The notes below the pieces were generated by a model. That model searched no databases, was not told the origin of the DNA, and saw only the letters and a program-made list of their open reading frames with translations. From Amphiscolops sp. MND2022 (Eukaryota), in NCBI GenBank assembly GCA_964187785.1, contig OZ076409.1, forward strand, positions 25,732,001 through 25,796,000: a DNA stretch of 64,000 bases, in the 5' to 3' direction. This document shows, in pieces, positions 9,424 through 47,585 of this stretch; within the stretch, counting starts at the first letter, position 1; each line of letters opens with the position of its first letter. Made by a program: the position numbers and the translations under genes.

Positions 9424-11347
9424 TGTAGAAAATTTAGAATTCGAGGGCGGAGAGATTTTCCCAAGAATCTAACTCTATCAGAAAAAGGATTTTTGGTGAG
9501 TAAGTTCGGTTATTTCTATCGCGTTCTCACTTATCCAAAGTCTCTCCAGTGCTCAAGTTTTTCGGCCCAAGTCAATCTATCACGAAAAGAGATGTTCAAT
9601 AATCCAATTAACTTCTAATAACGATAATCAAATCGTCTCGTCAAGAATATCAAATCAAGTTAACAAATTGGCTAAAGCTTAGGTCCACGATTCAGTCAAC
9701 TAATTCGATGCGCAAAACACAAGTCCCGGACTTGTTCAAGTTCAATCGCTAGAGCTAACGACAAACCAGTTCTTTTAGCGAAGCCAAGTTTCTTGCCCCC
9801 GTCTCGAGGCTCGACTTGCTTGTAGCTCTCTAACTCGGTTGTGTCTTCAAGTATATTCCAAATCCGCCTCAATTATATTTGTTCATCGCCCGCATTTTAG
9901 TTGTACCGATGTCGCTCTTTTATTTGCATGCTTTTAACTTCATGTTGTTTCATTCCTTTTATGGCATGGCAGCGCCCTAGTTATACTTCGACTAAACATT
10001 CTTCGCCGCCAACGACAAATACTTCAACAAAGGTTGTACAAAGTTCACATTTCAATAATAATTCAAGTCACCCAAGATATTTCTAATATCGAGCCAATCG
10101 TTCAATGACCTTCAATTACATGGTTTACATGCTCTATACGCGTAAGGGGTACTTTTCCGTCCTTTCGGGCGCAATGCATCGCGAATCGTTCTGCCTGGCT
10201 GAATTGCATAACTTATCACTTAACGACGCTGATTTACATGTTTTATCATAAGTTTCTCTATATGTTCATGGGTTGCATCCAGAATGACCTTGAGGTCCAT
10301 CGGTGACCTTGAAGTTAGTCGTCCTCATCCAATGTTGCTACATGCCAGGTTATATCATCCTAGGGTCAATGGTCTTCGAGTTCCATGATATGTGTATCGT
10401 TTGTTTACTTAAGGAGGTTACCCCCGCATGGGTTACAAATACGTTTCCATTCTTGTTAGTAATCGACTACATTCATCGTTCCGGTTCGTTTGAGGTATTA
10501 CGAGCCAAGGTCAAATGTCTTTTATCGGTCGGGCCCGCGCGTCCGGTCCCGCGTGCCTTAAACAAACATTATTCCGCGCGTGGTGGACCGATCAATGTAT
10601 CTTTCATGTATATTACTTAGGGTTACTAGGTGAACATCTTGGGTAAGTTTCATGATCTTCGGGTCATCCGGTGGCTATTTACATAACATTCGAGGTTTAT
10701 TTACTGAGGGTCCGTACTCCTCCTACACGCGTCATTGGGTTCCAAAAATATGCGCAAACAACCTCTTATCCTATGGGCTATTGATTCCATGTATTACATG
10801 ACTTATTCCGTGCTTGGCCGATGAGTTCGTGGGGGGGGTCGACCTAGGTCACTTCCGGTGCTAATAGCCCGGGGCTGGGGGGCTTCGTCTCGGTTCTGTT
10901 TTTATGGACGAGTAGCACAACACCTCAGGTATACGTGTGCCAAATTTCAGGTCTCTACGATTAATAGTCTTTGAGAGAAACCGTTTGGGGGGGGAGTTTA
11001 AAGATTTGCAATGTGACGATTTCCAGTGTTGTATCTTAGGATAATTTCGCTCAAAAGTGGGACTTAGTGAAATTCGCTCTCAGAGATCAACTCTGACTTA
11101 GACAATTCGATCAATTACATCGACGACGTCACTCACTAGCTCGTTAATTTTGCCTGAGAAGTTTCGTTTACGAAGTAAACCTAGTTTGCCAATTAAGTCC
11201 TATCAAAGCATGCTTTTGTCAGTCTGTTCAGCAGTTTTCACTATTCCGGCGGTCCAAAAATGTAATTAACATAGTTCTGCCTATCGTATGTACTTCGTAC
11301 AAAAGCCATGAGAATTTTTGTGCACGCCAAAAACTAAAATTTCCACA
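9424..11347 (-). repeat. 3' LTR of element A (1924 bp)
   Basis: Direct repeat of 24118-26035 with roughly 25 differences by eye (~1.3%). Confidence 0.95.
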
Positions 11348-11359
11348 CTCTTCCCTTCT
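11348..11359 (-). promoter_or_regulatory. Polypurine tract of element A
   Basis: Minus strand AGAAGGGAAGAG directly abuts the TG of the 3' LTR. Confidence 0.85.
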
Positions 11360-11703
11360 GGACTTTTATTCTCCCGAATAAACTTAACGGTATTATCGTT
11401 GGCTGAATCGTGTGATCTAGGTTAAACATACACGTTTTGATAAGTGGTTGGGGCATGGGTCAGGACATTCCGAAATGAAGTCGATAGCACCGACCATGAA
11501 TAGTATATACATTGAACGAAAGCAAAAATAACAACACTAGAATGAAACGATAGAAGAAATCATTTAGTTTACCTATGTCACTCTAAAAACCTACAATGGA
11601 CTATGCGACTATGCAAGAGGGTGGGAGATATACACTAATGAACTTAAGTTCAATTTTTGATTGAATAAAGAGCATGAGTATTAAAAAAACTTTTGGGAGT
11701 GAG

Positions 11704-11997
11704 TTAATCTCGCGCTTTTCTGGAATTAGCCATGAACATGATTAATTCGCCAACTTGCAACCGATGATCAGGGTGGAGGTTTCCCGCGAAGGAGAAGATT
11801 TCTCTTAGGGTTGCAAGCAGGCTTGTCCACATCCGCGTTCCCGGTTGGACTTCTACGTTCCTTCTCCGGGGCCTGTCGGAGCAATGGATCCTAGTGATCA
11901 TGGGCGCATCCCCGAAGTCAAAAAAAATCCTCTCTAACAATACCACCTCTTGGAAATCCTGGCAGTCCCAATTCCAATACAATCCAAAATAAGCCAT
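11704..11997 (-). CDS. Orphan accessory ORF (97 aa), sense to element A
   Basis: ATG in gtcATGG context; more GC-rich than its flanks; globular-looking composition; no recognised homology. Confidence 0.45.
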   Translation of the reverse strand: MAYFGLYWNWDCQDFQEVVLLERIFFDFGDAPMITRIHCSDRPRRRNVEVQPGTRMWTSLLATLREIFSFAGNLHPDHRLQVGELIMFMANSRKARD

Positions 11998-12416
11998 GAC
12001 CGTAAGAAAAAATCAGTCTGTAATAGTAATGACCAAACTCACACTTTACTTTCTACCGCAACAAGAAAGATTCTTAAATTCAAATTTTTCGTACTGCGAT
12101 GTTTCATTTGGAGGGCTGCTTCGAGAGCTGTTTAGAGATCAAACAATTGTTTCCTGTAATCTTATTACTTTCAGCAACATTCGGTTACGGGCTTTTATGA
12201 TTCCATACTTGCCTGTTATGTTATTCACGTCTTAAAGTTCGTCAAGAATCAAAGATTACATGAGGTGGATTTCTCGCTGTCGAATGTTTTGTTTAGTTAG
12301 CAAATTTACTCTTCACCAACAGCTTTCGCCAACTCGACGTTTCGGAACTACAAAATTCTACTTTACATCTTTCAAAGTTTTACGTCTCTTACAAAATTTC
12401 GTGATAATTGAGAACC

Positions 12417-12713
12417 ATGGTGCACGAGAATATCCTAATACGACTGCGATGGGCGTCGCTCTACTATCGAAGGGCTTTCTCTACTCAGAGCCTGAGTGTG
12501 GACGGTGGTTACGATGTCAAAATGGTATTGGAGGATGGCGAGCAGTTTTTACTAGAATATCTGTCGCCTGGTTGGGTCGAATTTGCCCTGTTCCTGCTGA
12601 ATATCCCGATCCCAGGGGAAAACGTCGAGGGTCAGACATTTCGGCTCCGATTGGCCCGACGAACGTTGCACAGAATTTTTAAGAAAACGACCCTTCCAGA
12701 CTTCTTATCTTGA
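12417..12713 (+). CDS. Orphan accessory ORF (98 aa), antisense to element A
   Basis: ATG in accATGG context; more GC-rich than its flanks; no recognised homology. Confidence 0.45.
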   Translation: MVHENILIRLRWASLYYRRAFSTQSLSVDGGYDVKMVLEDGEQFLLEYLSPGWVEFALFLLNIPIPGENVEGQTFRLRLARRTLHRIFKKTTLPDFLS

Positions 12714-13233
12714 ATTCATTTGTACAAAAACTATCATTTTCACTCTAATTTCATCTTTCATCGCTTCATCCCTATTAACCTACTAAAATAATTTATTGCA
12801 TCTTTTCTTTTTGGCAATGCGTAAAGGACGAGTTCTACCGATCCTAATTTACTTGTTCGAGGATAAGTTTGGATTGGTTGGGGTTATTTGTTGCACCTAA
12901 CAAAACAACAAGGAGTGTAGCACTAGGGTAGGGGTTGCGAGATAGGGGTGTGGGTATGTTCATAGGCGCTTTCATAAATGTAATCTGTTAGGGTCAGGGT
13001 TGGGTCGGAAAATTTAAAGAAAAAGAAACTAAAAACAAGAAACGGGTTTTTCGAAGTTCGGCCTCGAGTCCAAGCAAGGTTACTCTTGAAAACATTGAAG
13101 CAGTCTCATCATCTTGCATAACTTAGCTTCGGCGAACTTCAATCTGCCCGACAGCAAGAAATATACTGATTTAACAAATAAATTTAAAAGGAAAATGTTA
13201 GTGTTTCCTAATCAGTTTTGTCAAATTTAATAC

Positions 13234-14535
13234 TCAAGTGTTCGGTGGATGGAGTTTCACGTACATCGCCGCGTCGTCTGGTGGGCACGCTTTGCCGTCA
13301 GCTCGCTTTCCGCTTTTCCACTTCACTCTCTTCCACTGACTGCGCCAGCGACGTGCCCCATCTGATCTCAGTTGCAGCTGCGGCGGTTGTCCCATCTGTT
13401 GGACAGCATTCCATCTGCCATGCTTTCGGTGGGTCGGCCAACTCCGTCGTTGCAATCCCATTTGCTGACCTTCCGTTCTGCGCCTACAATGCTTCCTGTG
13501 GGGTACCCAGAATCGCCTTCTTTGGGTGAGAGCTGGGCGTTGGGGGATAGTTTCATCAAGGGTGTGGCAGCAATGTCGCTCCAGACTGCCTTTCGCTTCA
13601 GTACTTGGGAAGAAGCACTTCTCTTCTGCTTCGATGTCCGTCTCTGATCTGCCGGTTGCCTTGGTGACATCACAGACACTTTCAGTCAACATCTTGTGAA
13701 CACCATTGCCATGTACAAGGACTCCTTCCCATTCAAGAAGCTCAGACTATCCACCTCTATCTTGGTCTGCGTTTTCCACATCCAATTCTTCTAATAGAGC
13801 GTCGATGATTGTTTCGTCTTCGTCGGACAGTTTATGGGATTCATCAAGCTCTTCCATTTCTTTCAAAATCTCATCGAGCATTGCATGGTCAACGTCTTTC
13901 ACAGCGGAAGTTGCTGGATTCCAACGCTCCTCCATCAGTCTCTGGTGTTGATGTTCGACGACCAACACTTCTGTCAACTGCCCCTGTTCCCAGTTTATAT
14001 TTTCAACAACGGTCTCTCGACTCCGAACAAGCACTTCAAAGTCGTTCGTCAATGGAGAACACGTCATCACGGCTGTGTGAGGCGCACGCTTCCCTTCTGC
14101 ATCGAATCCCACAGCTGAGTCCTTGGGTTTTGCCAAAACTCGATCATCACTTGCATTTGCAGAAGTCGCCGCCTCGCAAAAGCAATTGTCCGGGAGCAAT
14201 ACAGCTTCCAATTCACGCTCGAAATCATGACTTCGTGTCGTCGTTATCGCCTCTCGCACCGTGCAGAATTGATCCACCTGCGACGCAAGTGTACCAGGTT
14301 GTCGAGCTAAGCCGTTTCTCGGACACAGTTTTTCACGGGCCACTCCTAATCTTTCCACGTGCATCTGTTCGTCTCGATACTGGTCACTGGCACCTCCGTG
14401 GCGTACTGCTTTTACAGCTAATCTCCCTGCTGCAGCTTTCACAATTGCCTTTGCCTGTTGTTGCGATAGGGTTTCTGTTGGTGCGGCCGGGAGAATTAAC
14501 TCCTGCGGTGGTCCCCCGGCCCTCACTAGTTTAAA
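13234..14535 (-). pseudogene. -1 frame ORF2 of element A (non-pol, ~430 codons, one internal TAG at 13747-13749)
   Basis: ORFs 13747..14595 and 13234..13692 are in the same frame, separated by one TAG; acidic helical middle, Arg/Trp-rich C-terminus; no D[ST]G, YxDD or integrase motif. Confidence 0.6.
14485..14535 (-). promoter_or_regulatory. -1 programmed ribosomal frameshift signal
   Basis: Minus strand U UUA AAC (14535-14529) in gag frame just before TAG, a 7-nt spacer, then stem GGCCGGGGGA / TCTCCCGGCC with a 17-nt loop. Confidence 0.75.
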
Positions 14536-15387
14536 TGACTGCGTCTTCGTGGGCATTTCCCTGCAATGTGTCCATCTACCCCTCACACATAACATCGAAC
14601 TGGCTTTTTCGATTGGGAGGCACCAATAAACTGCACTGGGGTCACCGTTTTGACAAATTGGGTCATCATATCTCTCAGACTGTTCATTTCATCAGTCAAT
14701 CTTTTCAGTTGCTGTTTCATCTTGTTCATCTCCGAGATGCTGTTCATTGTACCCGCCTCTTGAGTCATCCTGATTGCATCTACGCGCTTGTTGGGTCGGC
14801 TGTGTAGAGATTCGGCAATATTTTTTAAGGCAACCGCTCTATCAACTGTCTCCCTGAAGGTCCTGTTGTCTTCTCTTAGTAATACTTCGAGCAGCTCCGG
14901 ATTAGACAAACCTTCAACGAAACGCTCACGAAACAGTTCATCTCGTTGTTCAGCATCCACGTTGGCGTACACTAACATGGCGGTATTCCGCACTCTGCGC
15001 GCAAAGTCCCTGAGGCTCTCATTCCCTTTCTGCGCCACTGCTTCAAACTCACTTCTCCCCCTTCGGTCGTTTCGCAGCACACCCAAGGCTCTGTCCAAAT
15101 TTTCAAAGAGTGCCTGCAACGTGGGGACTGGTTCTCCGTTGACATGCTGTTTCAGCTCGGCCGGTGCAGCATGAAACTCATCTAGCGCATTCCCACTGAT
15201 ACAAACTGGAAGTGCATTAATAAATTGTATTTGGGTCCACCGGTTAGTCTCTGCCACTGCAACGAAGTGTAGTTTCCATTGGACCCAGTTTGGAAAGGCT
15301 TCAGAGGGGAATCGATCTGGTTTGAGGGCTCCATTGCTGAACATACGGTTCTGCTGATCGTTCAGCACCCTTCCAACGGCCTGCATG
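14526..15387 (-). pseudogene. gag: Gag of element A (main part), Ty3/Gypsy-type capsid plus CCHC knuckle
   Basis: QKGNESLRDFARRV...RERFVEGL retrotransposon-gag motif; knuckle C-Y-V-*-G-V-D-G-H-I-A-G-K-C with the second Cys as TGA (14583-14585); N-terminus at 23994-24031. Confidence 0.85.
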
Positions 15388-15392
15388 GCCAC

Positions 15393-16345
15393 TGTAGGCG
15401 CCAGTCAATTGCGAGATCAGAAACTCAAATTCGAACGTGACTGATGAAACTTACAACTCAAAACACTTAGAAACTTTGTCAAGATTTTAGTTGGAAATTT
15501 TACAAGTTTCACCAGAAATATGGCGTCACCAAAAAGGGCCACCCCCCCGTCCCGATAAACCACTCATTCAATCACCTTCAAACTTGGCACACGTATAGTA
15601 GTGGTGCTATCCTAACTTTTCACTAGAAACAACCAACCCCGTATCCCCCCTGGGTTCCGAGCTATTAACACCCAAAGTGACCTAGGTCGGACCCCATGAA
15701 TTACCCAATTTTGATATATTAATTATTATGTGATTTTCCTATATGACCTTGAAGGAAATTCATCTCTGTTGAAATTACTGATATTTACATTGTGTAAACA
15801 TACTTTCTAACCCACCTGACCAACATGCCAAAACCACCACATAGTTTGTTTACTTAGCCAATAACTTCATTTTATGCTTTAAATGTCATTTTATTTATAC
15901 CACATATTTCAACTGATATTTGCTTATATTTACTGTAGAACTGTAAACCATATGTATACCATTGTTAGATAGAGATTTTTTCCACTGAATAGCTATAGTC
16001 AAGTTGGGTCTTAGGACCAAGAGACTAATTAATCAACTTCTCAATCTTCACAACTTTTCGCTAGAGTCAGAGCGACTAAGTAGCTACTCTCATAGTTGGA
16101 GAGCCGGAGCGCGTGAAGATACCGTGAGGGAAGTGTGTTACGGATCACATCGGATCCAAATCAGTGCAAAGAGGAATCGCAGGAGATTCCACGGGTCACA
16201 TCGGACCCACCAGTCTAAAGATACAGTCCTTTAAAACAAGAAAACCAGGATTTGTTTAGTGACGGTCCACAGCACTAAGCAACGGATCAGGGCGGCGTAA
16301 AGCTTGTCAAGCCTCAGCGCAGGATAAAGGCAAGCAGCCGTTACA
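15393..16345 (+). repeat. 5' LTR of element B
   Basis: Direct repeat of 23041-23993, about 11 substitutions by eye. Confidence 0.95.
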
Positions 16346-16347
16346 TT

Positions 16348-16364
16348 TGGTCCGCCGACCCGGA
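16348..16364 (+). promoter_or_regulatory. Primer binding site of element B (tRNA-Tyr-like)
   Basis: TGGTCCGCCGACCCGGA, 2 nt after the LTR; resembles the TGGTCCTTCGAGCCGGA tRNA-Tyr PBS common in BEL/Pao. The tRNA identity is inferred. Confidence 0.75.
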
Positions 16365-16463
16365 CAACTCTTTGGTGGACGACCCGGACTAGAAGAAGAC
16401 GACTCGTTGGTGGACAACTGAGAAGATTGCCCAAGAAGAACAAGTGTCTGGATCTTGGAGTCT

Positions 16464-16663
16464 CTACTGTGTCTCTGGGAGATTGGGCTACTGTGTCTCT
16501 GGGAGATTGGGCTATTGTGTCTCTGGGAGATTGGGCTATTGTGTCTCTGGGAGCTTGGGCTATTGTGTCTCTGGGAGATTGGGCTATTGTGTCTCTGGGA
16601 GATTGGGCTTTTGTGTCTCTTGGATATTGGGCTATTGTGTCTCTGGGAGATTGGGCTATTGTG
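16464..16663 (+). repeat. 24-bp minisatellite, ~8 copies, in the leader of element B
   Basis: Unit CTATTGTGTCTCTGGGAGATTGGG. Confidence 0.95.
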
Positions 16664-16697
16664 ACTTTGGAACTAAACTCAATCGACAAGAGAAGAG

Positions 16698-19600
16698 ATG
16701 GCAGAACCAAAACGGTTCGATATCAACAAAATCGAAAACTTTCTGAAGAACTCTGCTGACAAAGCCCAAACGTTGAGTTATTGGAATGCAGCTGTCGAAC
16801 ACGGTAAGACTGTTAAAGAAATTGATGAGAACCTAACTAGCAATGTTGACGACAAGAAGATAGCAGATTTACTGCTAAGACGAACAGATTCCATGAACAG
16901 GAGGGATCGGCTCATTAAGGCAGTCGAAAATGCGATCAAAGTCAAGTATCAACCGCAGATACCCGAAATCTTCTCAACAGTGAACAAAGAAATGCAGAGC
17001 CGATTGGCTGAGTTGCAGCAGCAAAGCTCTAGCATTGGAAGGGTACAAATGCTGATGTCAGCATTGCAAGACGAAAATCAGATACTAAATTACTTGGATC
17101 TTGACGAAAAGAAACGTGCTATTGATAGACTAATGGATAGCAACAAAAAGTTGCGGGAAGATTCAATCGCAAATGGCAAAGTTGTCGACGAAGAAGATTA
17201 TGCTGCAGCATGTCAAGAATTGCTGCAGAAACGGTCTGACATTAAAACGAAGATTGAAGATCTGCTGAAGACAGGAGAAGGAGGAGCCATTTTGCGAAGT
17301 CTTGAAGACGCTGAACAAAGACTAGCAGACGCTCGGGTAAACTCAGCAGCAGACAAATCCAGTAAAAATGGTACCTCACCACAAAAGGAACCACAATCAG
17401 ACAATGAGCAAAAAAGACATGATGATGGCCATAACGCAGATGACAGACAAGAGCCAAGAAATGGAGCTAGTTCATTGCCAATAGACGAATTGAGCATACA
17501 TTCGCGAAGTAAAAGAACCAAAAGCAACAAAACGTCTGTGATTTCAAAAACATCTAGTGCACGACGATTTCTCGATTTGGAGCTGAAATCTTTGAAAGAG
17601 CAAGAAGAACTTCAAACCCGCCTAGAGAAACTGAGACGTGAAGCAAACGAAGTTAAGATAGCTAGCTTGCAAGATGAGATGGTTAGCTTGCAAGAGGAGA
17701 TGGCCCGCAAAGCCAAAATTGCTGAAAAGGAACTACAAATGGCGCAAGTGTCGAGTGGTGATGGGTCTAGCTTCCGAAGTATCTCACCAGTCGGGACTCC
17801 AGATGACAATCTGACGAAAGTCTCAGGATGGATGGACAAGACAGAAGAAGCTGAAAACGTGGCATCGCAGATTAACGTGCTATCTGTATACCAGCAAACG
17901 TCCATCTCAGCACCAGTGATTTCAGTACGATCAAGTCATGGAGGACAAGGCTCCGCGCAAGTGAGGGATTTGAAGTCCTCATTGAAACCAGTCATGTCCA
18001 CAGAGACCGCTGTGCGAGATATTGGAAAGGACAGAACAAAGACTGTCATAGATGTTGGCAGTCAAAGAGCAACAGAACAACCAGAAGTGAAATTCGCCTC
18101 ATCGAAGCCGTCGATGACTCTCGGTGCAGACCTGAATCGGTTACCGCCTACGTTTGGAGGCATTCCGAGTAGTGCATTTCAAGTACCACAGCTTGAGAAC
18201 ACACAGAAGCAGTATATGCCAAGTCAAGGGCCAAACATAGTGTCAAATGCGAGAGATGACTACTACATCAGATCTAGCTTGCCAAAACTGAAGCTGGCAG
18301 AGTTTTCCGGTGACCCATTGGAGTGGCCAGAGTGGTCACAACTCTTTCAAGCAACCGTCCACGCAGCCAATATGGATGACAGTGTAAAGATGAATCACCT
18401 GAAAACCATGGTCACAGGCAAAGCCAAGGAGGCGATTGCTGGCCTTGGGTACACTGCTGAGATGTACAATGTGGCGTGGAACGTTCTAGTTCGAAACTTT
18501 GGAAAACCCCAAATGGTTGTGAACGCCCAGTTGAAGCGAATCTATTCCTTTCCCCCTATGAAACCTTATGATGGAGCTGCATTGATTAAGTTTGCGAGTA
18601 TAGTGTCGAGTTGTGTGAACGTTCTGACACAATTCAACTACGTGGGAGACCTAAACTCAGAAGGAGTTTTAGGCAGTGCCACAAGGAAGTTAACATTGGA
18701 CATGAAAACGAAGTGGCTCACTTATGTGAAGCAAATGAACCTGTATCAACCCGGACTCTCCGTGTTCAGTGAATGGCTCAATGATATAGCAGATGTTCAA
18801 GACGAATTGCTCTTGTCTTCAAACCCGAATGCTGATCGCGCGAAGTCGAACTACAAGGAAAAGACCAAAGGCTCCACGTTTGCCACATCAACAACAAACA
18901 CAGCCAGTGACAACTCGAAATACCAGCGACAGTGTGCGCTGAAAGATGGCAAACATCCCATATGGAAATGTGAGAAGTTCAAGAAGATGAACGTCGAAGA
19001 AAGAGGACAAAAGGCGAAAGAGTTGAAATTGTGCTTCAAATGTTTGTCAGACGCGCATCAGATGAGAAATTGCTCTGGTAGACTCTGCGACGTAAGTGGT
19101 TGCGGAAAACCTCATCACAGATTGCTTGACAGACCATACAAGAACGTGGAACAAAAGCAAAATGTTGAAAATGTCGAAGAGGTCTCCAATTTGTCATCAA
19201 TGAAAAGCAGTGGAGTGCTTCCAGTAATTCCAGTAACGATAGGGAGTGAGAGCAAAGCTCTGAAAACGTTCGCTTTGTGCGACTCTGGAGCAAGCCTGTC
19301 CTTTGTGGACGAGAGCCTTATGAAAACGCTAAATCTGACGGGACAGCCAGTGGATTTGAATGTTGCAGGGATTCATGGAACGTCAGATATTAGTAGCAAA
19401 CGACTTCGAGTCAGGATTGGAGATCAGGACGGAAAAGTCAAAGAAGATATCATGGCATATAGTCATCCCAACGTGAATGCAGGAAATCGAACTTACAACC
19501 TCAAGAAATTAAAAGAGACATATCCTCACCTGTCAGTATTGAGGGAGTCTACCATCAACTTGGGAGAAGTGAATGTCATCTTGGGCCAAGATTGCTACCA

Positions 19601-21605
19601 CTTGCATAGAGCAATCGACTATAGAAAGTGTGGAAACGCAAAGCCCTGGGCAGTGCGAACGAAGCTGGGATGGATGCTCAGTGGACCCTTGCCTCAGCAA
19701 GAGACTGCGAAGCTTGCTACTGAAAGCTTAGTCGCTGCAGAAGTGGACCCATTAGCGGATCAAGTGAAAACTTGGTGGAGCATGGAATCGTATGCTTCCA
19801 ACTGCAGCGCATCCGGAAGGTCCAAAGAGGATGACAAAGCCCTCGAAATGCTCAAGGCAACCACAAAGTTCGATGGAGAGAGGTATGAGGTCGGGCTACT
19901 TTGGAAAAATGCAAAGCCGTATTTGCCGAACAACTACAGTTCAGCAGTAAGTCAATTGAAGTCTCTCGAGCGCCGACTGGAAAAGGATGAGAGCTTGAAA
20001 CAACGCTACAAAGAGACAATTGACGTGGATGTACAAAAGGGGTTTGTGAGAGTTCTGGACGAAGCAGAGCTTGAAAACACTAATTCAGACCTTCAGTGGT
20101 ATGTTCCGCATCTCCCTGTGCTGAACCCGAACAAGCCGGATAAAGTGAGACGAGTGTGCAACGCTGCCTCAAAGTTCGGAGGTGTGTCGCTGAATGATAA
20201 CTTGATGGCCGGTCCAGACCTCCTACAATCGCTGATAGGAATTATCTTCAGATTCAGGGAAAAGGAAATCGCCCTGACAGCAGACGTCGAAGCAATGTTT
20301 CTCCAAGTGAAAGTACCCCCTACTGATTGCAGAGTACTGAGATTTTTGTGGAGAGAAAACCACACTGACCCTATCTCTGTGTATGAATATGGAAGACACA
20401 TTTTTGGAGCTAAGAGTTCGCCAACATGTGTCAACTACGTTTTGCAACAAGTCGGACGAGACAGCAGAGATGACAATGGGATGGTTGCAAAGTTGATCAA
20501 CAGAAACTTCTATATGGACGATTTTGTGAAGTCAGTAGCTTCGAGGGAAGAAGCTGTGGAAGTGTATAATGGCTTGCGAAAATCCTTAGCGGATCGTGGC
20601 TTTCAACTAACGAAATGGATCTGCAACTCAGAGAAAGTAATGGAAGAAATTCCTTCTGAAGATAGATCAGACACGCTAAGTAAAACATTCGAAGCTGAAC
20701 CCTTGGCACCCTCTATCTTGGGACTCCAGTGGAATGTGGAGTCAGACAGTCTTGAGATTTGCCGCGGTACGGGAAAAGAGGTGCCTGTCAAGATCACTCA
20801 GAGAATTGTTCTATCTCACGTATCCCCTGTGTTTGACCCGTTGGGATTGTTTTCCCCCTTCACAGTGAGAATGAGATTGTTGCTCAAAGGAATATGGAAG
20901 AAGCATGGGCAATCGTGGGACGAACAAGTTTCTCCAGAAGACGAGATTGCTTTCAAGGATTGGGCATCGGAGTTGAGTCAAATGAATGAAATGGCTATCA
21001 AAAGAAAATATCTATCGAAAAATGCTGAAGTAGTGGACTTGCATATTTTTGCCGATGCATCCCTGGAAGCCATGTGCATAGTTGATAACTTTCGAGATCA
21101 ACAAACTGGAGAGCTTGCCTATGTGGTAGGGAAATGCCGAGTAGCGCCAATGAAGCAACAATCAATTCCCCGACTAGAGCTACAAGCAGCTATGTATGGA
21201 ACCCGATTAAAACAACTGATCGTAGACGAACACGACATTCAAGTTGAACGAACTTTCTTTTGGACGGATTTGACAACCGTTTTGCAATGGTTGCATGGAG
21301 CTGACAAGAAACAACCGGTGTTTGTAGCGAATAGAGTCGCTGAAATCCTTGACAGTTCAACTATTGATCAGTGGAGACATGTCGAAGGAACCTTAAACCC
21401 TGCCGACATTGGAACAAGAGGAAAATCCGTCCACGAATTAGAAAAGAGCGAGTGGTTCACAGGGCCGGCATGGCTTCAAGAAAAGGAAGATGCTTGGCCA
21501 CAAACTTCACCACAGTTGTTTCAGCGGAAAACAGAGGACATAGAGCAAGTCTTTGAAGTTGTGTCAGAAGAAAAGAACATTGATTCGGTTCGTTCAGACA
21601 AATGA
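16698..21605 (+). CDS. BEL/Pao Gag-Pol polyprotein (gag, Cys/His knuckles, aspartic protease, RT, RNase H)
   Basis: 1635 aa; FSGDPLEWPEW gag region, CFKCLSDAHQMRNC and CGKPHHRLL knuckles, ALCDSGAS protease, NFYMDDF RT, LHIFADAS...IPRLELQAA...NPADIGTRG RNase H. Confidence 0.95.
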   Translation: MAEPKRFDINKIENFLKNSADKAQTLSYWNAAVEHGKTVKEIDENLTSNVDDKKIADLLLRRTDSMNRRDRLIKAVENAIKVKYQPQIPEIFSTVNKEMQSRLAELQQQSSSIGRVQMLMSALQDENQILNYLDLDEKKRAIDRLMDSNKKLREDSIANGKVVDEEDYAAACQELLQKRSDIKTKIEDLLKTGEGGAILRSLEDAEQRLADARVNSAADKSSKNGTSPQKEPQSDNEQKRHDDGHNADDRQEPRNGASSLPIDELSIHSRSKRTKSNKTSVISKTSSARRFLDLELKSLKEQEELQTRLEKLRREANEVKIASLQDEMVSLQEEMARKAKIAEKELQMAQVSSGDGSSFRSISPVGTPDDNLTKVSGWMDKTEEAENVASQINVLSVYQQTSISAPVISVRSSHGGQGSAQVRDLKSSLKPVMSTETAVRDIGKDRTKTVIDVGSQRATEQPEVKFASSKPSMTLGADLNRLPPTFGGIPSSAFQVPQLENTQKQYMPSQGPNIVSNARDDYYIRSSLPKLKLAEFSGDPLEWPEWSQLFQATVHAANMDDSVKMNHLKTMVTGKAKEAIAGLGYTAEMYNVAWNVLVRNFGKPQMVVNAQLKRIYSFPPMKPYDGAALIKFASIVSSCVNVLTQFNYVGDLNSEGVLGSATRKLTLDMKTKWLTYVKQMNLYQPGLSVFSEWLNDIADVQDELLLSSNPNADRAKSNYKEKTKGSTFATSTTNTASDNSKYQRQCALKDGKHPIWKCEKFKKMNVEERGQKAKELKLCFKCLSDAHQMRNCSGRLCDVSGCGKPHHRLLDRPYKNVEQKQNVENVEEVSNLSSMKSSGVLPVIPVTIGSESKALKTFALCDSGASLSFVDESLMKTLNLTGQPVDLNVAGIHGTSDISSKRLRVRIGDQDGKVKEDIMAYSHPNVNAGNRTYNLKKLKETYPHLSVLRESTINLGEVNVILGQDCYHLHRAIDYRKCGNAKPWAVRTKLGWMLSGPLPQQETAKLATESLVAAEVDPLADQVKTWWSMESYASNCSASGRSKEDDKALEMLKATTKFDGERYEVGLLWKNAKPYLPNNYSSAVSQLKSLERRLEKDESLKQRYKETIDVDVQKGFVRVLDEAELENTNSDLQWYVPHLPVLNPNKPDKVRRVCNAASKFGGVSLNDNLMAGPDLLQSLIGIIFRFREKEIALTADVEAMFLQVKVPPTDCRVLRFLWRENHTDPISVYEYGRHIFGAKSSPTCVNYVLQQVGRDSRDDNGMVAKLINRNFYMDDFVKSVASREEAVEVYNGLRKSLADRGFQLTKWICNSEKVMEEIPSEDRSDTLSKTFEAEPLAPSILGLQWNVESDSLEICRGTGKEVPVKITQRIVLSHVSPVFDPLGLFSPFTVRMRLLLKGIWKKHGQSWDEQVSPEDEIAFKDWASELSQMNEMAIKRKYLSKNAEVVDLHIFADASLEAMCIVDNFRDQQTGELAYVVGKCRVAPMKQQSIPRLELQAAMYGTRLKQLIVDEHDIQVERTFFWTDLTTVLQWLHGADKKQPVFVANRVAEILDSSTIDQWRHVEGTLNPADIGTRGKSVHELEKSEWFTGPAWLQEKEDAWPQTSPQLFQRKTEDIEQVFEVVSEEKNIDSVRSDK

Positions 21606-23092
21606 CGCAAATCTTCGCCTATTGCCTTCGGTTCAAATCAAAAATCAAAGGAAAGGTGGTGATAACAGAAGAATTGCAACAAGTGATCCGACTGTTACTG
21701 AGGAAGAGCCAGATTGAAAGTTTTGGTCCAACTTATCAAGTATTGGCAGCAGGTAAACCCATGGCTGCATCTGATCACTTGAACAAACTGTCACCATTTA
21801 TGGACAATCAGCTAATGCGATTAAAAGGACGACTGCGTCATGCTGATGCGAGTTATGAAATGAAACATCCTATTTTGCTATATGCGAAGCATCCAATAGT
21901 GAGGAAATTGATTGAAGATGCGCATGAAAATAACTATCACGAAGGAACAGAGTATGTTCGCAGCATTTTGCAGCAAAATTATTGGATAATTGGACTCCGA
22001 AACGCGCTTAGAAATGTGAAGCTGAAGTGTGTTAAGTGTAGAAAGCAACAAGTCGGAGGAGTTCAACCTTTCATGGCAGACCTACCTAAAGAAAGATTGG
22101 AAGAAAGAGTTTTCCCATTTGCCAACACTGGAGTAGATTATTTTGGACCATTCGAAGTGAGATTCATGAGGAAATCAATGAAACGATGGTGTTGTCTATT
22201 CACATGTTTGACAACAAGAGCTGTGCATGTTGAAGTTGTGCCCAGCCTGGAAGCCAACGCATGTCTTGCTGCAATTACGAGATTCATCGCAAGAAGAGGA
22301 AAACCGAATATCATTCTAAGTGATAATGGAACAAATTTTGTGGGTGCAGCGAGAGAAATGCGAGAATGGATAGAAGCTTGGAATCAATCAGACATTGAGC
22401 AGTCTTTGGCTCAAAAGCAAATAAAATGGAAGTTCAACCCCCCAGGAGCTCCTCATTTTGGAGGTGTTTGGGAGCGAATGGTCAGAAGCTGCAAGAAAAC
22501 TATGATGACAATTGTAGGAAACAGAACACTGACAGATGATGTATTATCCACAACAATGTGTCTAGTCGAGCAAATATTGAATTCGAGACCTCTGACTAGT
22601 GTCAGTGATGATCCTGAAGATTTGGAAGCCTTGACCCCAAATCACTTCCTGCTAGGACGTGCAAGTCCAGCAACCCCATTTATTCCTGACGCTCAGCGAT
22701 ATACCGATCTGAGAGAAGTATTCAGAGTATCACAAGCATACACAGACATGATTTGGAGCAGATGGAATAGAGAATATTTACCACAATGGAATGAGAGATC
22801 TAAATGGAATAAAGAAGAAGTTAGACAACTGGAAGTCAATGATTTGGTTTGGATAGTGGATGAGAATCTAAAAAGAGCACACTACAAGATGGGTAGAGTG
22901 TTGGAAGTCTACCATGGAAGCGATGGGCGAGTGAGATCAGCGCTGGTGAAAACAGAAGATGGAAAACTCAAAAGACCAGTAGTGAAACTGGCACCCATGT
23001 TCTACGAAAGTGTTTTTCGGGAGAAAAACAGGGCTGGCAATGTAGGCGCCAGTCAATTGCGAGATCAGAAACTCAAATTCGAACGTGACTGA
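21584..23092 (+). CDS. BEL/Pao integrase, out of frame with the upstream pol
   Basis: H..H..CVKC zinc domain, GVDYFGP, SDNGTNF, GGVWERMV; frame opens FGSFRQMTQIFAYCLRF; ends 52 nt inside the 3' LTR. Confidence 0.9.
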   Translation, partial: FGSFRQMTQIFAYCLRFKSKIKGKVVITEELQQVIRLLLRKSQIESFGPTYQVLAAGKPMAASDHLNKLSPFMDNQLMRLKGRLRHADASYEMKHPILLYAKHPIVRKLIEDAHENNYHEGTEYVRSILQQNYWIIGLRNALRNVKLKCVKCRKQQVGGVQPFMADLPKERLEERVFPFANTGVDYFGPFEVRFMRKSMKRWCCLFTCLTTRAVHVEVVPSLEANACLAAITRFIARRGKPNIILSDNGTNFVGAAREMREWIEAWNQSDIEQSLAQKQIKWKFNPPGAPHFGGVWERMVRSCKKTMMTIVGNRTLTDDVLSTTMCLVEQILNSRPLTSVSDDPEDLEALTPNHFLLGRASPATPFIPDAQRYTDLREVFRVSQAYTDMIWSRWNREYLPQWNERSKWNKEEVRQLEVNDLVWIVDENLKRAHYKMGRVLEVYHGSDGRVRSALVKTEDGKLKRPVVKLAPMFYESVFREKNRAGNVGASQLRDQKLKFERD

Positions 23093-23993
23093 TGAAACTT
23101 ACAACTCAAAACACTTAGAAACTTTGTCAAGATTTTAGTTGGAAAATTTACAAGTTTCACCAGAAATATTGCGTCACCAAAAAGGGCCACCCCCCCGTCT
23201 CGATAAACCACTCATTCAATCACTTTCAAACTTGGCACACGTATAGTAGTGGTGCTATCCTAACTTTTCACTGGAAACAACGAACCCCGTATCTCCCCTG
23301 GGTTCCGAGCTATTAACACCCAAAGTGACCTAGGTCGGACCCCATGAATTACCCAATTTTGATGTATCAATTATTATGTGATTTTCCAATATGACCTTGA
23401 AGGAAATTCATCTCTGTTGAAATTACTGATATTTACATTGTGTAAACATACTTTCTAACCCACCTGACCAACATGCCAAAACCACCACATAGTTTGTTTA
23501 CTTAGCCAATAACTTCATTTTATGCTTTAAATGTCATTTTATTTATACCACATATTTCAACTGATATTTGCTTATATTTACTGTAGAACTGTAAACCATA
23601 TGTATACCATTGTTAGATAGAAATTTTTTCCACTGAATAGCTATAGTCAAGTTGGGTCTTAGGACCAAGAGACTAATTAATCAACTTCTCAATCTTCACA
23701 ACTTTTCGCTAGAGTCAGAGCGACTAAGTAGCTACTCTCATAGTTGGAGAGCCGGAGCGCGTGAAGATACCGTGAGGGAAGTGTGTTACGGATCACATCG
23801 GATCCAAATCAGTGCAAAGAGGAATCGCAGGAGATTCCACGGGTCACATCGGACCCACCAGTCTAAAGATACAGTCCTTTAAAACAAGAAAACCAGGATT
23901 TGTTTAGTGACGGTCCACAGCACTAAGCAACGGATCAGGGCGGCGTAAAGCTTGTCAAGCCTCAGCGCAGGATAAAGGCAAGCAGCCGTTACA
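23041..23993 (+). repeat. 3' LTR of element B
   Basis: TGTAGGCGCC...GCCGTTACA, 953 bp. Confidence 0.95.
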
Positions 23994-24031
23994 GCCAATT
24001 CCAGCAAATCTCGTTTCTCGTTTGGATTCAT
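23994..24031 (-). pseudogene. gag: Displaced N-terminus of element A gag (MNPNEKRDLLEL-A)
   Basis: Joins in frame to 15387 after removing element B and one TSD copy. Confidence 0.8.
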
Positions 24032-24099
24032 CTCCCAAACAGCCAGTAAAAGCAAAATCAAAGTAACAAGTTGTAACACGATAGCAAATTAACGAAATG

Positions 24100-24116
24100 C
24101 CCAACCAGGAGCGCCA
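24100..24116 (-). promoter_or_regulatory. Primer binding site of element A
   Basis: Minus strand TGGCGCTCCTGGTTGGG, 1 nt after the 5' LTR; complementary to a tRNA 3' end ...GGAGCG-CCA (tRNA-Asn-like, inferred). Confidence 0.75.
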
Positions 24117-24117
24117 C

Positions 24118-26035
24118 TGTAGAAAATTTAGAATTCGAGGGCGGAGAGATTTTCCCAAGACTCTAACTCTATCAGAAAAAGGATTTTTGGTGAGTAAGTT
24201 CGGTTATTTCTGTCGCGTTCTCACTTATCCAAGGTCTCTTCAGTGCTCAAGTTTTTCGGCTCAAGTCAATCTATCACGAAAAGAGATGTTCAATAATCCA
24301 ATTAACTTCTAATAACGATAATCAAATCGTCTCGTCAAGAAAATCAAATCAAGTTAACAAATTGGCTAAGGCTTAGGTCCACGATTCAGTCAACTAATTC
24401 GATGCGCAAAACACAAGTCCCGGACTTGTTCAAGTTCAATCGTTAGAGCTAACGACAAACCAGTTCTTTTAGCGAAGCCAAGTTTCTTGCCCCCGTCTCG
24501 AGGCTCGACTTGCTTGTAGCTCTCTAACTCGGTTGTGTCTTCAAGTATATTCCAAATCCGCCTCAATTATATTTGTTCATCGCTCGCATTTTAGTTGTAC
24601 CGATGTCGCTCTTTTATTTGCATGCTTTTAACTTCATGTAGTTTCATTCCTTTTATGGCATGGCAGCGCCCTAGTTATACTTCGACTAAACATTCTTCGC
24701 CGCCAACGACAAATACTTCAACAAAGGTTGTACAAAGTTCACATTTCAATAATAATTCAAGTCACCCAAGATATTTCTAATATCGAGCCAATCGTTCAAT
24801 GACCTTCAATTACATGGTTTACATGCTCTATACGCGTAAGGGGTACTTTTCCGTCCTTTCGGGCGCAATGCATCGCGAATCGTTCTGCCTGGCTGAATTG
24901 CATAACTTATCACTTAACGACGCTGATTTACATGTTTTATCATAAGTTTCTCTATATGTTCATGGGTTGCATCCAGAATGACCTTGAGGTCCATCGGTGA
25001 CCTTGAAGTTAGTCGTCCTCATCCAATGTTGCTACATGCCAGGTTATATCATCCTAGGGTCAATGGTCTTCGAGTTCCAATATATGCGTATCGTTTGTTT
25101 ACTTAAGGAGGTTACCCCCGCATGGGTTACAAATACGTTTCCATTCTTGTTAGTAATCGACTACATTCATCGTTCCGGTTCGTTTGAGGCATTACGAGCC
25201 AAGGTCAAATGTCTTTTATCGGTCAGGCCCGCGCGTCCGGTCCCGCGTGCCTTAAACAAACATTATTCCGCGCGTGGTGGACCGATCAATGTATCTTTCA
25301 TGTATATTACTTAGGGTTACTAGGTGAACATCTTGGGTAAGTTTCATGATCTTCGGGTCATCCGGTGGCTATTTACATAACATTCGAGGTTTATTTACTG
25401 AGGATCCGTACTCCTCCTACACGCGTCATAGGGTTCCAAAAATATGCGCAAACGGCCTCTAATCCTATGGGCTATTGATTCCATGTATTACATGACTTAT
25501 TCCGTGCTTGGCCGATGAGTTCGTGGGGGGGTCGACCTAGGTCACTTCCGGTGCTAATAGCCCGGGGCTGGGGGGCTTCGGCTCGGTTCTGTTTTTATGG
25601 ACGAGTAGCACAACACCTCAGGTATACGTGTGCCAAATTTCAGGTCTCTACGATTAATAGTCTTTGAGAGAAACCGTTTGGGGTGGTTTAAAGATTTGCA
25701 ATGTGACGATTTCCAGTGTTGTATCTTAGGATAATTTCGCTCAAAAGTGGGACTTAGTGAAATTCGCTCTCAGAGATCAACTCTGACTTAGACAATTCGA
25801 TCAATTACATCGACGACGTTACTCACTAGCTCGTTAATTTTGCCTGAGAAGTTTCGTTTACGAAGTAAACCTAGTTTGCCAATTAAGTCCTATCAAAGCA
25901 TGCTTTTGTCAGTCTGTTCAGCAGTTTTCACTATTCCGGCGGTCCAAAAAGTAATTAACTAGTTCTGCCTATCGTATGTACTTCGTACAAAAGCCATGAG
26001 AATTTTTGTGCACGCCAAAAACTAAAATTTCCACA
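24118..26035 (-). repeat. 5' LTR of element A (1918 bp)
   Basis: Direct repeat of 9424-11347. Confidence 0.95.
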
Positions 26036-33300: not shown

Positions 33301-34217
33301 AAGATATCCATTCAGTTTTGTTGAAAGGAATCATAACTGAAAATCCGTAGAAGGTAGTTTTCAAACAAAAATACAAATCGCAATTAGCGGACCCGATAAT
33401 AACGTAAAAACAGACACGGGAAATACTTCACCGAAAATTCATTTTGGGTCCATTATTTCAGTCTGACAGAAAAGACCGGAATACGACGGCACCCACAGTT
33501 TCAGCCGAAGTTACAACGAAAAAACGTCAGTGTCTCCGCGGTCTCTACGGAAAGTATTGCAACCGGGACGAGATCCTCCAATGGTAACTTGAGAATAGTC
33601 CAAAGCAAGAAAGCCGAGATGGATACAGATGATGAAGACGATGGTATTGACGAAGACGATGAAGAAATGCCGGACGAGATCGGAAAGAGCTATGAAGCTG
33701 TGACACGTCCGAGAGAGACGGAAGATACACACCCATCCGAACTGATCCGGAAAAGGACGCCATCCAAATTCACACCGGATGGCGCAACCCCACAGCGTCA
33801 GAAAATTTCTGATAAAATCAGACGGTCAGACCGAAACACTAATAAACCGAATAGATACGGTTGCGTACCTATACAAAAAACTTTTAGATAAGACTAATTA
33901 ATTAAGACTGTTACAGGTCCAATGTGGAACAGGACGAAAGGCACCCCCAGCAGGAAAAGATTCAGAAGCCCGCGGATTTCATGCTAGGAGACATGACACC
34001 ACCTCGGAACCTCCAACATGTAGAAAGCTCGCGAAAGAGAGAGGAGGAAATGTCATACGGTTCATCCGATCAATATGACCTCTACCCAAATGCGGTGGCA
34101 GAATACCTGCTCGTGTTTGTCAACAAAACCTATAGATATACAACTGTTATATCATGTGGAGTTCTATTACAATGAGATTTTATATACCAAGCCTAATCGT
34201 ATCGTGAGATTACAACA
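30363..34217 (+). mobile_element. Decayed Ty3/Gypsy LTR retrotransposon (element C)
   Basis: Diverged short LTRs 30363-30548 and 34051-34217; PBS TGGCGCAGTCAG (30549, tRNA-Ser-like); PPT 34033-34050; TSD AAAAC on both sides; fragmented gag (CNKCGKKRHYARAC), RT (KQKARPIP) and integrase (QIDFTG). Confidence 0.85.
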
Positions 34218-37200
34218 AAAACAATGTTTAATCGAAAACTGGACACCTTTTTGTCTTTTTGCATGTTTTGGCACTAATTCAATAGAAAAAGTCTTTTAGT
34301 CCCGCTAGCTTATTCAACAGTTCTGCTGAAAACTCTGTTCTTCCTATTATACACGATTTTCCATTGTGGCGACTGTGAAGCGATTTTGTTTATACAAAAG
34401 ATAACAACTACCTTATATGAAGGTGTTCATCTTGAAACATTGAGCTAAAATTGTAGCTAAAAACCGTTCCTGTGAGTTTTTCATGGCTTTCTAAGACTGA
34501 AAGAAAATAATGTCCCACGACAATAGCACGTGTCATTGTTAACTCCCCTTCAATTGTATTTTTTTAAAAAAAAACAACAAATCCAACTCAAATCCCTGAG
34601 AATAAACGAAAGTTTTTGGTAGTAAAGCCCCATAGAAGTTGGAGAAATTTTCGTCTTCGGAAATAATTGTTCAAAGTTGACCAAACCTGTGGGCACTGTT
34701 TGAAAAGGAAGTAATCAAAGAAAAGTTACCTTATGCCTGTCCTTTATAATTTGAAGCGACCCAGGAAGCAGAAAATTAGGCGAGAGATCGAGAAAATTAT
34801 AAAGTTGAAAATTGTTTGGGTAATTTTCCAACTGGGGTAATTAGGTCTTTTTGCAAGATCGCTGCAAAGCCAATACGATTTCCCTTGAGGCTGGGAATTA
34901 ACTTTTGCGAGGAAGTTTAATCCTGTTTATTGCAGTGGCATTTTGTTCAAATAATCAACGTTCAACATGGTTGTGAAAGTTGTCAGCAGAAGAACACACT
35001 CTATTGCTTCAAGTTCAAAATTGTAAACAAAGCCAAGTAGACGATACAAATGCAAATGTTTTGACTGGGAGATAAAATTTGGATTATCTTAACTGGTATC
35101 TCATTCATTCTCCAGTCTTTTATATGTCATTTGGTTGTAAAATGGGGCCAAGAAGAAAACTAAGTTGGGTAATCGGTCACTACAAACATGTTTGGATTAT
35201 TTGGAAGCCGATTTCTCCTGAATTTTAAGATTTTGCCACTCATAAAACCGTATCAACTTACGCAAAATGTCAACAATGTTTCTCTACCCTAGTCGAATCT
35301 ACCGGGAAGTTTTCCATGCTGCATTCATGCATGCAGGCTAAATTTTTTAATGAAAAATTCAGGGACCCTGCATGGAAATTTTTGTAAAACTTCCAAGCAG
35401 TTTCTAAAATGCTCTGAGCATATCCATGCACTTTGAAAAAATTTCCAAGCAGTTCACAAAATTTTTTTTAAGAAAGGAAGCAGGATAACGAGGGCACCAA
35501 CCGATCTTAAAACTCCACAGAACATCGAAATCTTTTTCAAACGCATCCTCCTCATCTCAAAACCTACTGTACTTCAACAGAAACAATTTCAACGAAAAAA
35601 AATCAATTGAACGAAAACAAATTCAGACAAATAGACACAAAAAAGAAATTCGACAAGTCACAGAGTATCATGGGAATGGATTTAGATGAGCGCCTGGATG
35701 TAGCGGTGACAATATTTTGTCAATTCATTCAAGGTTCTTTAGGCCAAACTAATTTTCCGATCGTAGCTATAACTGCGGTCACTTCTGAAGCACTGAAAAA
35801 GTGGTTTTAGACGTTATTCTACGAGATTATAGGTATTTTAGTCGTTATTCCAGAGAAATACAGTGTTTTTAGATCCTTCTGGACCCAAAGATATTTATTT
35901 TAGACGTTATTCTACAAATATAGTGATTTTAGACGTTAATCCCCAAAAAAGCTATATTAGAGGTTATTCCGCAAAAACAGTGATTTTAGACGTTATGCTA
36001 CCAGAATATGCGTATTTTAGTCGTTATTCCAGAGAAATACAGTGTTTTTAGATCTTATCCGAGCCAAATATAATAATTTCAGACTTTATTCCACAATTAT
36101 TGTGATATAAATGACAATATTTGTGGAATAACGTCTAAACGTAAAGTAGTCAATAAAAATCGTATAGAACTTCTATACGAAAAAGATTTTGTTTTTCCTA
36201 AACACGAAAAGTGATCAATATTTTTCACCAAACAAAATTCTAGTAATACGAATTTGTTTGCAACACTGGCAATTTGTTTACGTCTCTTGTAGCGTCTGTG
36301 CCTACAAAATTAGACGCTTTGCCCAGAAAAACCTACAAAATTTTGCGGACTATTTGGTTTTGATCTTCTTGATGCTGCTCTGAAAACCCGCCAAACTGTA
36401 GAGAAATCTTGATAAATACCTGAAAAATTAGTGACGCAGCATGAAAATATTAAGCATGAAAATTTCTCTAAGCAGCTCCCAAAAACCTAATAAATTTGCC
36501 TTGCAACCTATAAAAGCATGTAAAACGTTTGAGCACTTTCAACTAGGGTAATGTCAAATTTACCTGATTGAAATGCGAACAAGAGCAATAACGTCAATTG
36601 CGATAGGGCATTTCCGATTTGACGTTATAGCTGCCCAAATGAAAGAATTTTCAAGCCTAAATTTTAGTCTGGAACGTAGCACATTCAAATCATAAGAACT
36701 CAAATTTACCGCCATCCAAAACAATCTATGTTGAAAGTCTGTATAATCAATACCTAATAAAATGTTCAGGGTTTCGTTGATAGGTTTTTTAACAAAACGT
36801 GGTAGAACAAGAAAGTTACTTTAATAGAAGTCTATACAAAATTCAACAGTCTGAACAAATTGTTAGAGCCATGGCAACTACCATTCAATACCAAAGCAAG
36901 AAAGCCGAGATGGATACAGATGATGAAGACGATGGTATTGACGAAGACGATGAAGAAATGCCGGACGCGATCGGAAAGAGCTATGAAGCTATGACACGTC
37001 CGAGAGAGACGGAAGATACACACCCATCCGAACTGATCCGGAAAAGGACGCCATCCAAATTCACACCGGATGGCGCAACCCCACAGCGTCAGAAAATTTC
37101 TGATAAAATCAGACGGTCAGACCGAAACACTAATAAACCGAATAGATACGGTTGCGTACCTATACAAAAAACTTTTAGATAAGACTAATTAATTAAGACT

Positions 37201-47552: not shown

Positions 47553-47585
47553 GCTTACCATTTTTGGGCAAAATCACTGAAAACA

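Follow-up and report, generated by a model that had tools for sequence, protein, structure and literature searches.

Which protein stands behind the gag frameshift signal of a long terminal repeat (LTR) retrotransposon that has no pol, and how can such an element spread? The question is raised by element A, which occupies the minus strand from position 26035 to 9424 of a 64,000-nucleotide stretch of the genome of Amphiscolops sp. MND2022 (GenBank assembly GCA_964187785.1, contig OZ076409.1, positions 25,732,001 to 25,796,000), hereafter termed the window. Element A belongs to a multi-copy pol-less Ty3/Gypsy lineage and is interrupted by a nested BEL/Pao element. A first-pass annotation, made from the letters of the window, had regarded it as a lineage in its own right rather than a simple deletion product, with an open reading frame (ORF2) in the place of pol. 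The reading that we favor, at a probability of roughly one half, is that element A, itself dead, stems from a pol-less Ty3/Gypsy satellite family that would make its own Gag together with a minor Gag-ORF2 fusion and would be served by the Pol of a co-resident helper family.

A pol-less family and its candidate helper

A search of the species' own 1.07-Gb genome yielded at least 143 matches to Gag and at least 133 to ORF2. For 100 of the other 142 Gag matches, picked across bands of identity, 10 kb of surrounding sequence were fetched. ORF2 without pol was found in 80 of these gag-related loci and full pol without ORF2 in 18, while two had neither and none had both. The single weak pol match among the ORF2 loci (L074) lies outside the LTRs of that locus, and none of the 80 ORF2-bearing sisters has pol inside the element, in agreement with the pol-less lineage proposed in the first-pass annotation. 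Exact 5-bp target site duplications (TSDs) flank 41 of the 52 pol-less sisters in which both ends are callable, and many pol-less LTR pairs are more than 99% and up to 100% identical; both argue for recent mobility of this enzyme-less family. The elements, termed type I below, are about 8 kb in size and encode gag, ORF2 and two small ORFs. Compared with the Gag of the window, their Gag proteins cluster at about 90, 74 and 56% identity, and those of the pol-bearing family are at about 65%. Reciprocal in-frame mosaics between satellite subfamilies fit co-packaging of their RNAs. A short variant (L033-L039, L051 and others) with an internal region of about 3.0 kb keeps gag and ORF2 and lacks both small ORFs, and tandem arrays with shared LTRs and a period of about 6.1 kb occur at L114, L117 and L123.

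With regard to the source of enzymes, the pol-bearing family is the likely helper of the pol-less satellites, judged from shared sequence features. Its Pol contains protease (PR), reverse transcriptase (RT), RNase H (RH) and integrase (IN) in the order typical of Gypsy elements, and its nearest named relatives stem from nematodes, spiders and fish, which points to an animal as the probable host. Helper and satellites have the LTR ends TGTGGAA...TACA in common, their LTRs are 80-85% identical across about 1.4 kb (in sister L032, the U3 part is about 85% identical to the helper LTR across 1.4 kb), and the same 18-nt primer binding site (PBS) is present in all 11 copies compared, which include the helper and satellite types I, II and III. 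A PBS pattern derived from the sisters has 326 exact matches in the genome vs. none for a control, and of four matching loci that were inspected, three are tRNA-Asn genes. In three sisters, the 35 internal bases that directly precede the 3' LTR, including the polypurine tract (PPT), agree with a helper copy at every position, and blastn of helper vs. satellite internal DNA found nothing in common between the gag region and these 35 bases. Heptamer and stem of the frameshift signal occur in 18 of 18 helpers and in 63 of the 80 pol-less sisters. The features by which partners were recognized in wheat, i.e., identical PBS, identical LTR termini and a conserved LTR segment (PMC11302176), are all present in the satellite-helper pair, and the autonomous family with the same LTR termini and PBS that the first-pass annotation had predicted thus exists, with full pol at 18 loci. 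Judged from these shared signals and from the young pol-less copies with LTRs up to 100% identical, the satellite is very probably mobilized by the helper's Pol.

Several helper copies encode an additional ORF of 745-753 codons with a hydrophobic N-terminus as judged by eye, and this third ORF gives a weak match to Baculo_F (E 1.4e-4, 21 bits, below the cut-off of 24.1). Judged from this roughly 750-codon ORF, the helper family may be errantivirus-like; the env-like ORF is missing from both helper copies for which the entire internal region was read. Among the helper copies L079, L081, L083, L085, L087, L092 and L151-L160, the env-like ORF is found along with variable accessory genes at the 3' side, some copies lacking env or accessory ORFs. 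The accessory genes comprise a sense ORF of 163-175 aa and an antisense ORF of 285 aa with a faint match to an integrase zinc finger (E 0.077). Locus L163 is a chimera: a helper-derived segment with 5' LTR, gag and the beginning of pol is joined to an LTR end, a PBS and a type III element. It may have arisen by template switching from one RNA to the other, helper and satellite being the two partners. A dense cluster of tRNA-Asn 3' ends at G000:C7:47639204-47699759 holds most of the 100 matches to the PBS pattern that were listed out of 326; it is a tandem tRNA array that supplies the primer type.

ORF2 behind the predicted frameshift signal

A site of programmed -1 frameshifting is defined by a heptamer of the form X XXY YYZ, a spacer of 5-9 nt, a stable stem and a second ORF in the -1 frame. 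In the window, the heptamer U UUA AAC is located at 14529..14535 on the minus strand (it is found in 76 of the 80 pol-less sisters) and is separated by 7 nt from the predicted stimulatory stem GGCCGGG...CCCGGCC at 14485..14521 (minus strand), the 55 nt downstream of the heptamer having a predicted folding energy of -23.8 kcal/mol. The gag reading frame terminates right after the heptamer, and ORF2 (13234..14535, minus strand, 433 codons) follows in the -1 frame. All four elements of the definition are in place, and the family probably makes a Gag-ORF2 protein by -1 frameshifting. An ATG in the ORF2 frame 19 codons upstream allows internal initiation as a minor alternative. In some subfamilies (L045, L050, L041), the spacer behind the heptamer (14485-14528 in the window) can pair with the loop of the stem, with matching changes seen by eye, though not in all copies; such pairing may represent a pseudoknot or an alternative fold.

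The frame of ORF2 is open at insertion and decays afterwards. This was established for 74 of the 80 ORF2 loci, those without an LTR pair (L040, L057, L121) or without a heptamer (L075, L103, L111) being left out: at least 369 codons are open in 33 of the 37 copies with LTR identities of at least 99%, in 5 of 12 at 97-99% and in 5 of 25 below 97%. Under neutrality, 14-16 nonsense hits would be expected in ORF2 per 0.25 substitutions per site, and three subfamilies that are 0.5-1.0 synonymous substitutions per site (dS) apart in ORF2 all keep it open. Gap lengths divisible by three make up 134 of 226 in ORF2 vs. 35 of 209 in the adjacent non-coding spacer, pairs not being independent. A codon model was fitted to 33 open copies, two of an initial 35 being excluded for their shifted tails, and gave ratios of nonsynonymous to synonymous substitution (omega) of 0.30 for gag (twice the log-likelihood difference, 2dL, about 190) and of 0.73 for ORF2 (2dL 24-26 against an omega of 1), values that stem from copies selected for open frames and from a tree model violated by recombination. 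Within ORF2, an N-terminal helix (0.54) and an acidic hairpin (0.51) are clearly below 1, and for the hairpin omega drops to 0.18-0.23 between subfamilies. Of the test proposed in the first-pass annotation, a dN/dS below 1 is borne out for gag and for ORF2 as a whole, and a stop-free frame for ORF2 in most young copies; the middle third of ORF2 is near-neutral (0.95).

The same annotation had pointed out an acidic helical stretch and a basic Trp/Arg-rich tail, and both are present. The acidic helix-loop-helix lies at 13774..13890 of the window (minus strand); an AlphaFold2 (AF2) model of ORF2 from sister L045 places helices at residues 219-234 and 244-260 here, with predicted local distance difference test (pLDDT) scores of 85-93. 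With a mean pLDDT of 49, the model is confident for three helices and of low confidence for the rest of the chain. The basic Trp/Arg/His tail with its HRKHGRW motif (13237..13521, minus strand) has a net charge of +18 to +26 in three sisters. Judged from the regional omegas and from the model, ORF2 resembles a spacer whose frame has to be kept open and in which a few motifs are under constraint. In accordance with the first-pass annotation, no PR, RT or IN motif and no D[ST]G was found in any of 35 open sister ORF2s, and a Pfam search of the window gave no match on ORF2 and no PR-RT-RH-IN pol within element A.

Strong purifying selection acts on both small ORFs, which are more constrained than ORF2 according to the codon model, with omegas of 0.31 for sORF3 and 0.245 for sORF4 (33 non-redundant intact copies each, other satellite types included). 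In the window, they are intact and arranged head to head on opposite strands, sORF3 (12417..12713, plus strand, 98 aa) being antisense to element A and sORF4 (11704..11997, minus strand, 97 aa) being sense. Genome matches amount to 150 of 150 scored for sORF3 and to 149 for sORF4; 55 of the 80 type I loci contain both and 23 contain neither, and neither was found in the helper stretches read. Pfam gave no match for either. The 57 database homologues of sORF3 are all ENA records, an Atlas search gave no usable match for it, no relative was confirmed in metagenome contigs, and its predicted model reaches a pLDDT of 43. A relationship between the two as paralogs was rejected (hhalign probability 0.5%).

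By tracing the small ORFs into 20 further loci, two additional satellite types were found, both pol-less and sharing LTR clan and PBS with type I. Type II (L145-L148, L150) has a single ORF of about 835 aa that comprises Gag, a protease with an intact DTG and a Macro-like domain (PF01661, E 0.013-0.12, below the cut-off) and contains neither RT nor IN; it shares sORF4, and sORF3 was detected in three of the five. Type III (L131-L134, L136-L138, L140-L144, L149) carries both small ORFs, several copies having LTRs more than 99% identical, and encodes a highly diverged Gag (about 24% identity) in frame with a long tail ending in W..HRKHGRWK. This octapeptide is found both in the ORF2 tail and in that of type III, two sequences that are otherwise not related (hhalign probability 89%), and four of its eight codons differ silently between the two, a comparison drawn from 86 and 11 exact peptide matches in which replacements could not appear. 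The possibility that HRKHGRW reflects a DNA-level signal shared with the helper was rejected, the best match of a 38-nt probe having 13-18 mismatches in helper and type II.

These features would be compatible with the following mechanism. Gag-ORF2 would be produced at the ratio of Gag-Pol and would enter the particle via its Gag part, where a mostly disordered spacer would display the acidic helical hairpin and the basic HRKHGRWK tail. If the tail binds RNA and the hairpin binds a basic protein of the helper, satellite RNA could compete better for the helper's Pol. In a family without enzymes, selection keeps ORF2 open only if the encoding RNA or its close kin benefits. No complete zinc knuckle is present in 12 of 49 open-gag copies, some with LTRs 99.6-100% identical, and this incompleteness in young copies fits a second RNA-binding part. 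Young knuckle-incomplete Gag copies with LTRs 99.5-100% identical are L046, L052, L055, L058, L061, L063, L064, L066 and L069. We regard a role of the ORF2 protein in the particle, with the basic tail holding RNA and the acidic hairpin engaging a helper protein, as about evenly balanced in probability. Less probable is an extended version, in which a satellite of an env-bearing, retrovirus-like element swapped Pol for a dedicated adaptor made at Pol stoichiometry by way of the frameshift signal that it has kept, and thereby captures helper enzymes for its own RNA. The satellite would count among at least three protein-coding types with a two-gene accessory cassette in common, and these might be carried along in the enveloped particles of the helper.

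Competing explanations for ORF2

Several results weigh against a satellite with a particle protein of its own. The 60 database homologues of ORF2 are all ENA records, and none was found outside that set; Foldseek searches of PDB and BFVD gave no fold match, PDB sequence searches and Pfam nothing significant, and an Atlas search of an ORF2 homolog no usable match, though distant relatives of ORF2 may escape searches of this depth. The overall omega of ORF2 is 0.73, with values for middle (0.95), linker (0.77) and tail (0.77) that are not significantly below 1, and both the selection of open copies for this model and the restriction of the HRKHGRWK comparison to peptide matches have to be counted on the same side. 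Sisters L032, L072 and L122 end ORF2 early or carry the tail in another frame. Finally, the groups form a polytomy in a gag tree of 37 rows, which neither demonstrates nor rejects that the pol-less type arose once (p-AU 0.08).

The main rival to the adaptor is an ORF2 kept open mainly for the sake of the RNA. Ribosomes that read through a would-be 3' untranslated region can shield a transcript from nonsense-mediated decay, and frameshifted ribosomes would here traverse 1.3 kb of otherwise untranslated sequence, either with this effect or by coupling translation to packaging, the peptide itself being largely inert. Such an explanation would account for a frame that is strongly kept while most of its sequence drifts, the middle being the clearest case, and for a tail whose frame is shifted in some copies. 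It does not account for the constraint on helix and hairpin or for an HRKHGRWK shared with type III despite silent differences, and in long variants the ORF2 stop is still followed by internal sequence of about 1.8 kb and by U3. We consider it fairly unlikely.

That ORF2 is eroded pol, i.e., a transframe helix, a dead protease and the first RT helices kept as a structural spacer or as a decoy for Pol dimerization, is suggested by its position and frame, which are those of pol. Over about its first 45 codons, ORF2 is similar to the beginning of pol, in part owing to the RNA signal located there, and no homology to Pol was found beyond this segment. Codons 18-45 are similar to the transframe helix of the helper in one subfamily (L041, z 4.0, reached by 3 of 500 shuffles), other subfamilies giving z values of 0.3-1.8 against the same helper; the best match of the acidic hairpin in related pol is the N-terminal RT helix (z 1.7, 11 of 200 shuffles, one ORF2 tested). 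A by-eye likeness of ORF2 to a degenerate protease/RT N-terminus was rejected, since hhalign against a pol profile returned a probability of 0.2%; the structure prediction recommended in the first-pass annotation led to no Foldseek match. Scores of hidden Markov models for protease, RT N-terminus and transframe region were no better than those of block-shuffled controls, and D[ST]G is missing from 35 of 35 open sisters. Taken together, an origin from eroded pol appears unlikely. A derivation from env was likewise discarded, as tblastn found no match to ORF2 in helper loci.

A further proposal is that ORF2, like the small ORFs, is an accessory factor acting on host or helper, for instance in anti-silencing or dominant-negative control of the helper, and that the frameshift merely sets a low dose. 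Sister types bear other accessory domains at the same place (Macro-like, E 0.013), helpers have variable 3' ORFs of their own, and antisense 3' ORFs have been proposed as regulators in Retand (PMC11963269). A purely trans-acting product can be cheated upon and should decay, yet 33 of 37 young copies are open, and fusion to Gag would put ORF2 in the particle, which leaves this proposal with a small share of the probability. The view that element A merely derives from an autonomous element by deletion, its frames being open by chance, as the broken window copy without TSD might suggest, is practically refuted by 80 sisters of the same structure, by post-gag internal DNA without a blastn match to the helper except for the last 35 bases and by the selection detected on gag, ORF2 and both small ORFs.

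The window copy, known relatives and other features

The copy in the window is dead, with gag interrupted, stops in gag and ORF2 and no TSD. The layout of LTR, PBS, gag with CCHC motif, slippery site and stem, ORF2, two small ORFs, PPT and LTR claimed in the first-pass annotation is present, with 433 codons in ORF2; it has to be amended insofar as the CCHC motif is cut by a stop and ORF2 contains a stop at codon 263 (13749-13747). The state of this copy, the env-like gene of the helper and the stronger conservation of the small ORFs relative to ORF2 go beyond that earlier reading. On the minus strand, the 5' LTR (24118..26035, 1918 bp) and the 3' LTR (9424..11347, 1924 bp), both TG...CA, differ by substitution at 23 of 1918 aligned columns (1.2%) and additionally by 5 small indels, close to the 1.3% estimated before. 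The PBS (24099..24116, minus strand) is complementary to the 3' end of tRNA-Asn(GTT) with one mismatch in this copy, and the PPT (11348..11359, minus strand) adjoins the 3' LTR. The 5' piece of gag (23994..24031, minus strand) consists of the start codon at 24031 and about 12 codons up to the insertion of element B; the 3' piece (14526..15392, minus strand) matches Retrotrans_gag with an E of 5.8e-4, under the curated cut-off, is 65-66% identical to helper Gag and has a premature stop at 14585-14583 inside the zinc knuckle, leaving CCHC incomplete. The ends of the element are flanked by CATAC and TGCTG. The left flank occurs as a single copy in the genome and does not account for the absent TSD.

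Element B (15393..23993, plus strand) is a BEL/Pao LTR retrotransposon and not part of element A's family. It contains the Pfam domains Peptidase_A17, DUF1759, RVT_1, rve and DUF5641, its LTRs are 1.2% apart, the same divergence as in element A, and it has a 5-bp TSD with one mismatch. A 24-bp tandem array is located at about 16440-16700, and the frame is broken between the two long ORFs of element B.

Gag-coding non-autonomous partners of LTR elements are already known, including the plant precedents Quinta and Sabrina/WHAM/Wilma. Quinta, which is paired with Cereba in einkorn wheat, is a non-autonomous Gypsy element with a single ORF, GAG-DUF1 (PMC11302176). It resembles the type I satellite in combining Gag with a domain of unknown function, in having the PBS, the LTR termini and a portion of the LTR in common with an autonomous partner and in recombination between subfamilies; it differs in that the satellite has its extra protein behind a retained -1 signal (frameshifting is not mentioned in the part of PMC11302176 at hand), two conserved small ORFs and a helper with an env-like gene. 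No function is proposed there for DUF1. Wilma, Sabrina and WHAM of wheat parallel types I, II and III, as one autonomous family is accompanied by several semi- or non-autonomous types, among them Gag-protease elements as well as variants that have unique short ORFs (PMC9744471); a frameshift fusion is not mentioned in that report as far as accessible, whereas the satellites described here have a common two-gene cassette and type II adds the Macro-like domain. Pol-less Athila elements likewise have ORFs under purifying selection, mobilization in trans and frequent recombination, and retain gag and an env-like ORF, while the satellite has no env and an unrelated ORF in the slot of pol (PMC2410132). 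TR-GAG elements are active LTR elements with Gag and without enzymes, are smaller than 4 kb, have a single ORF and occur in plants (PMC4350172); with about 8 kb and four ORFs, the satellite falls outside that definition. In animals, MaLR with ERVL as well as ETn/MusD, IAP I-delta-1, RecKoRV and bovine ERVK D-type elements are non-autonomous, several having the center swapped and the gag side kept (PMC10735291, PMC10924933). These are retroviral and not Gypsy elements, MaLR has a single gag-like ORF (PMC10735291), and the accessible parts of both reports describe no maintained non-Pol ORF behind a gag-pol recoding signal. The basis of preference is stated as unknown for the bovine D-type (PMC10924933). 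Antisense 3' ORFs are also present in Retand (PMC11963269). A search of the open-licence literature found no report of a pol-less Gypsy element that retains the gag-pol frameshift for an unrelated maintained ORF, which is not proof of absence.

The family indicates that a gag-pol recoding signal can be retained for a non-Pol protein and bears on how non-autonomous LTR elements gain access to the Pol of a helper. It offers small, defined candidates, i.e., a 40-residue acidic hairpin, an 8-residue basic motif that recurs in two satellite types, and two strongly selected genes of 100 residues, and its many young copies suit population tests. Annotation of transposable elements based on pol would miss most of the clan, for which the genome contains 242 exact PPT-LTR junctions and 125 matches to the heptamer-stem pattern typical of type I vs. 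22 full-length matches to the N-terminal part of helper pol at 84% identity or more.

Scans of the window revealed no tRNA and no Rfam family. Outside element A, a 3.29-kb unit is present three times in tandem at 33600-43487, with more than 99.5% identity and no ORF of 200 codons. At 45070-47980, direct repeats of 433 bp flank a 2-kb element with 142-nt inverted ends that resembles a miniature inverted-repeat transposable element, and the region 55910-62370 comprises two satellite-like arrays of diverged units of about 185 bp without tRNA or Rfam match.

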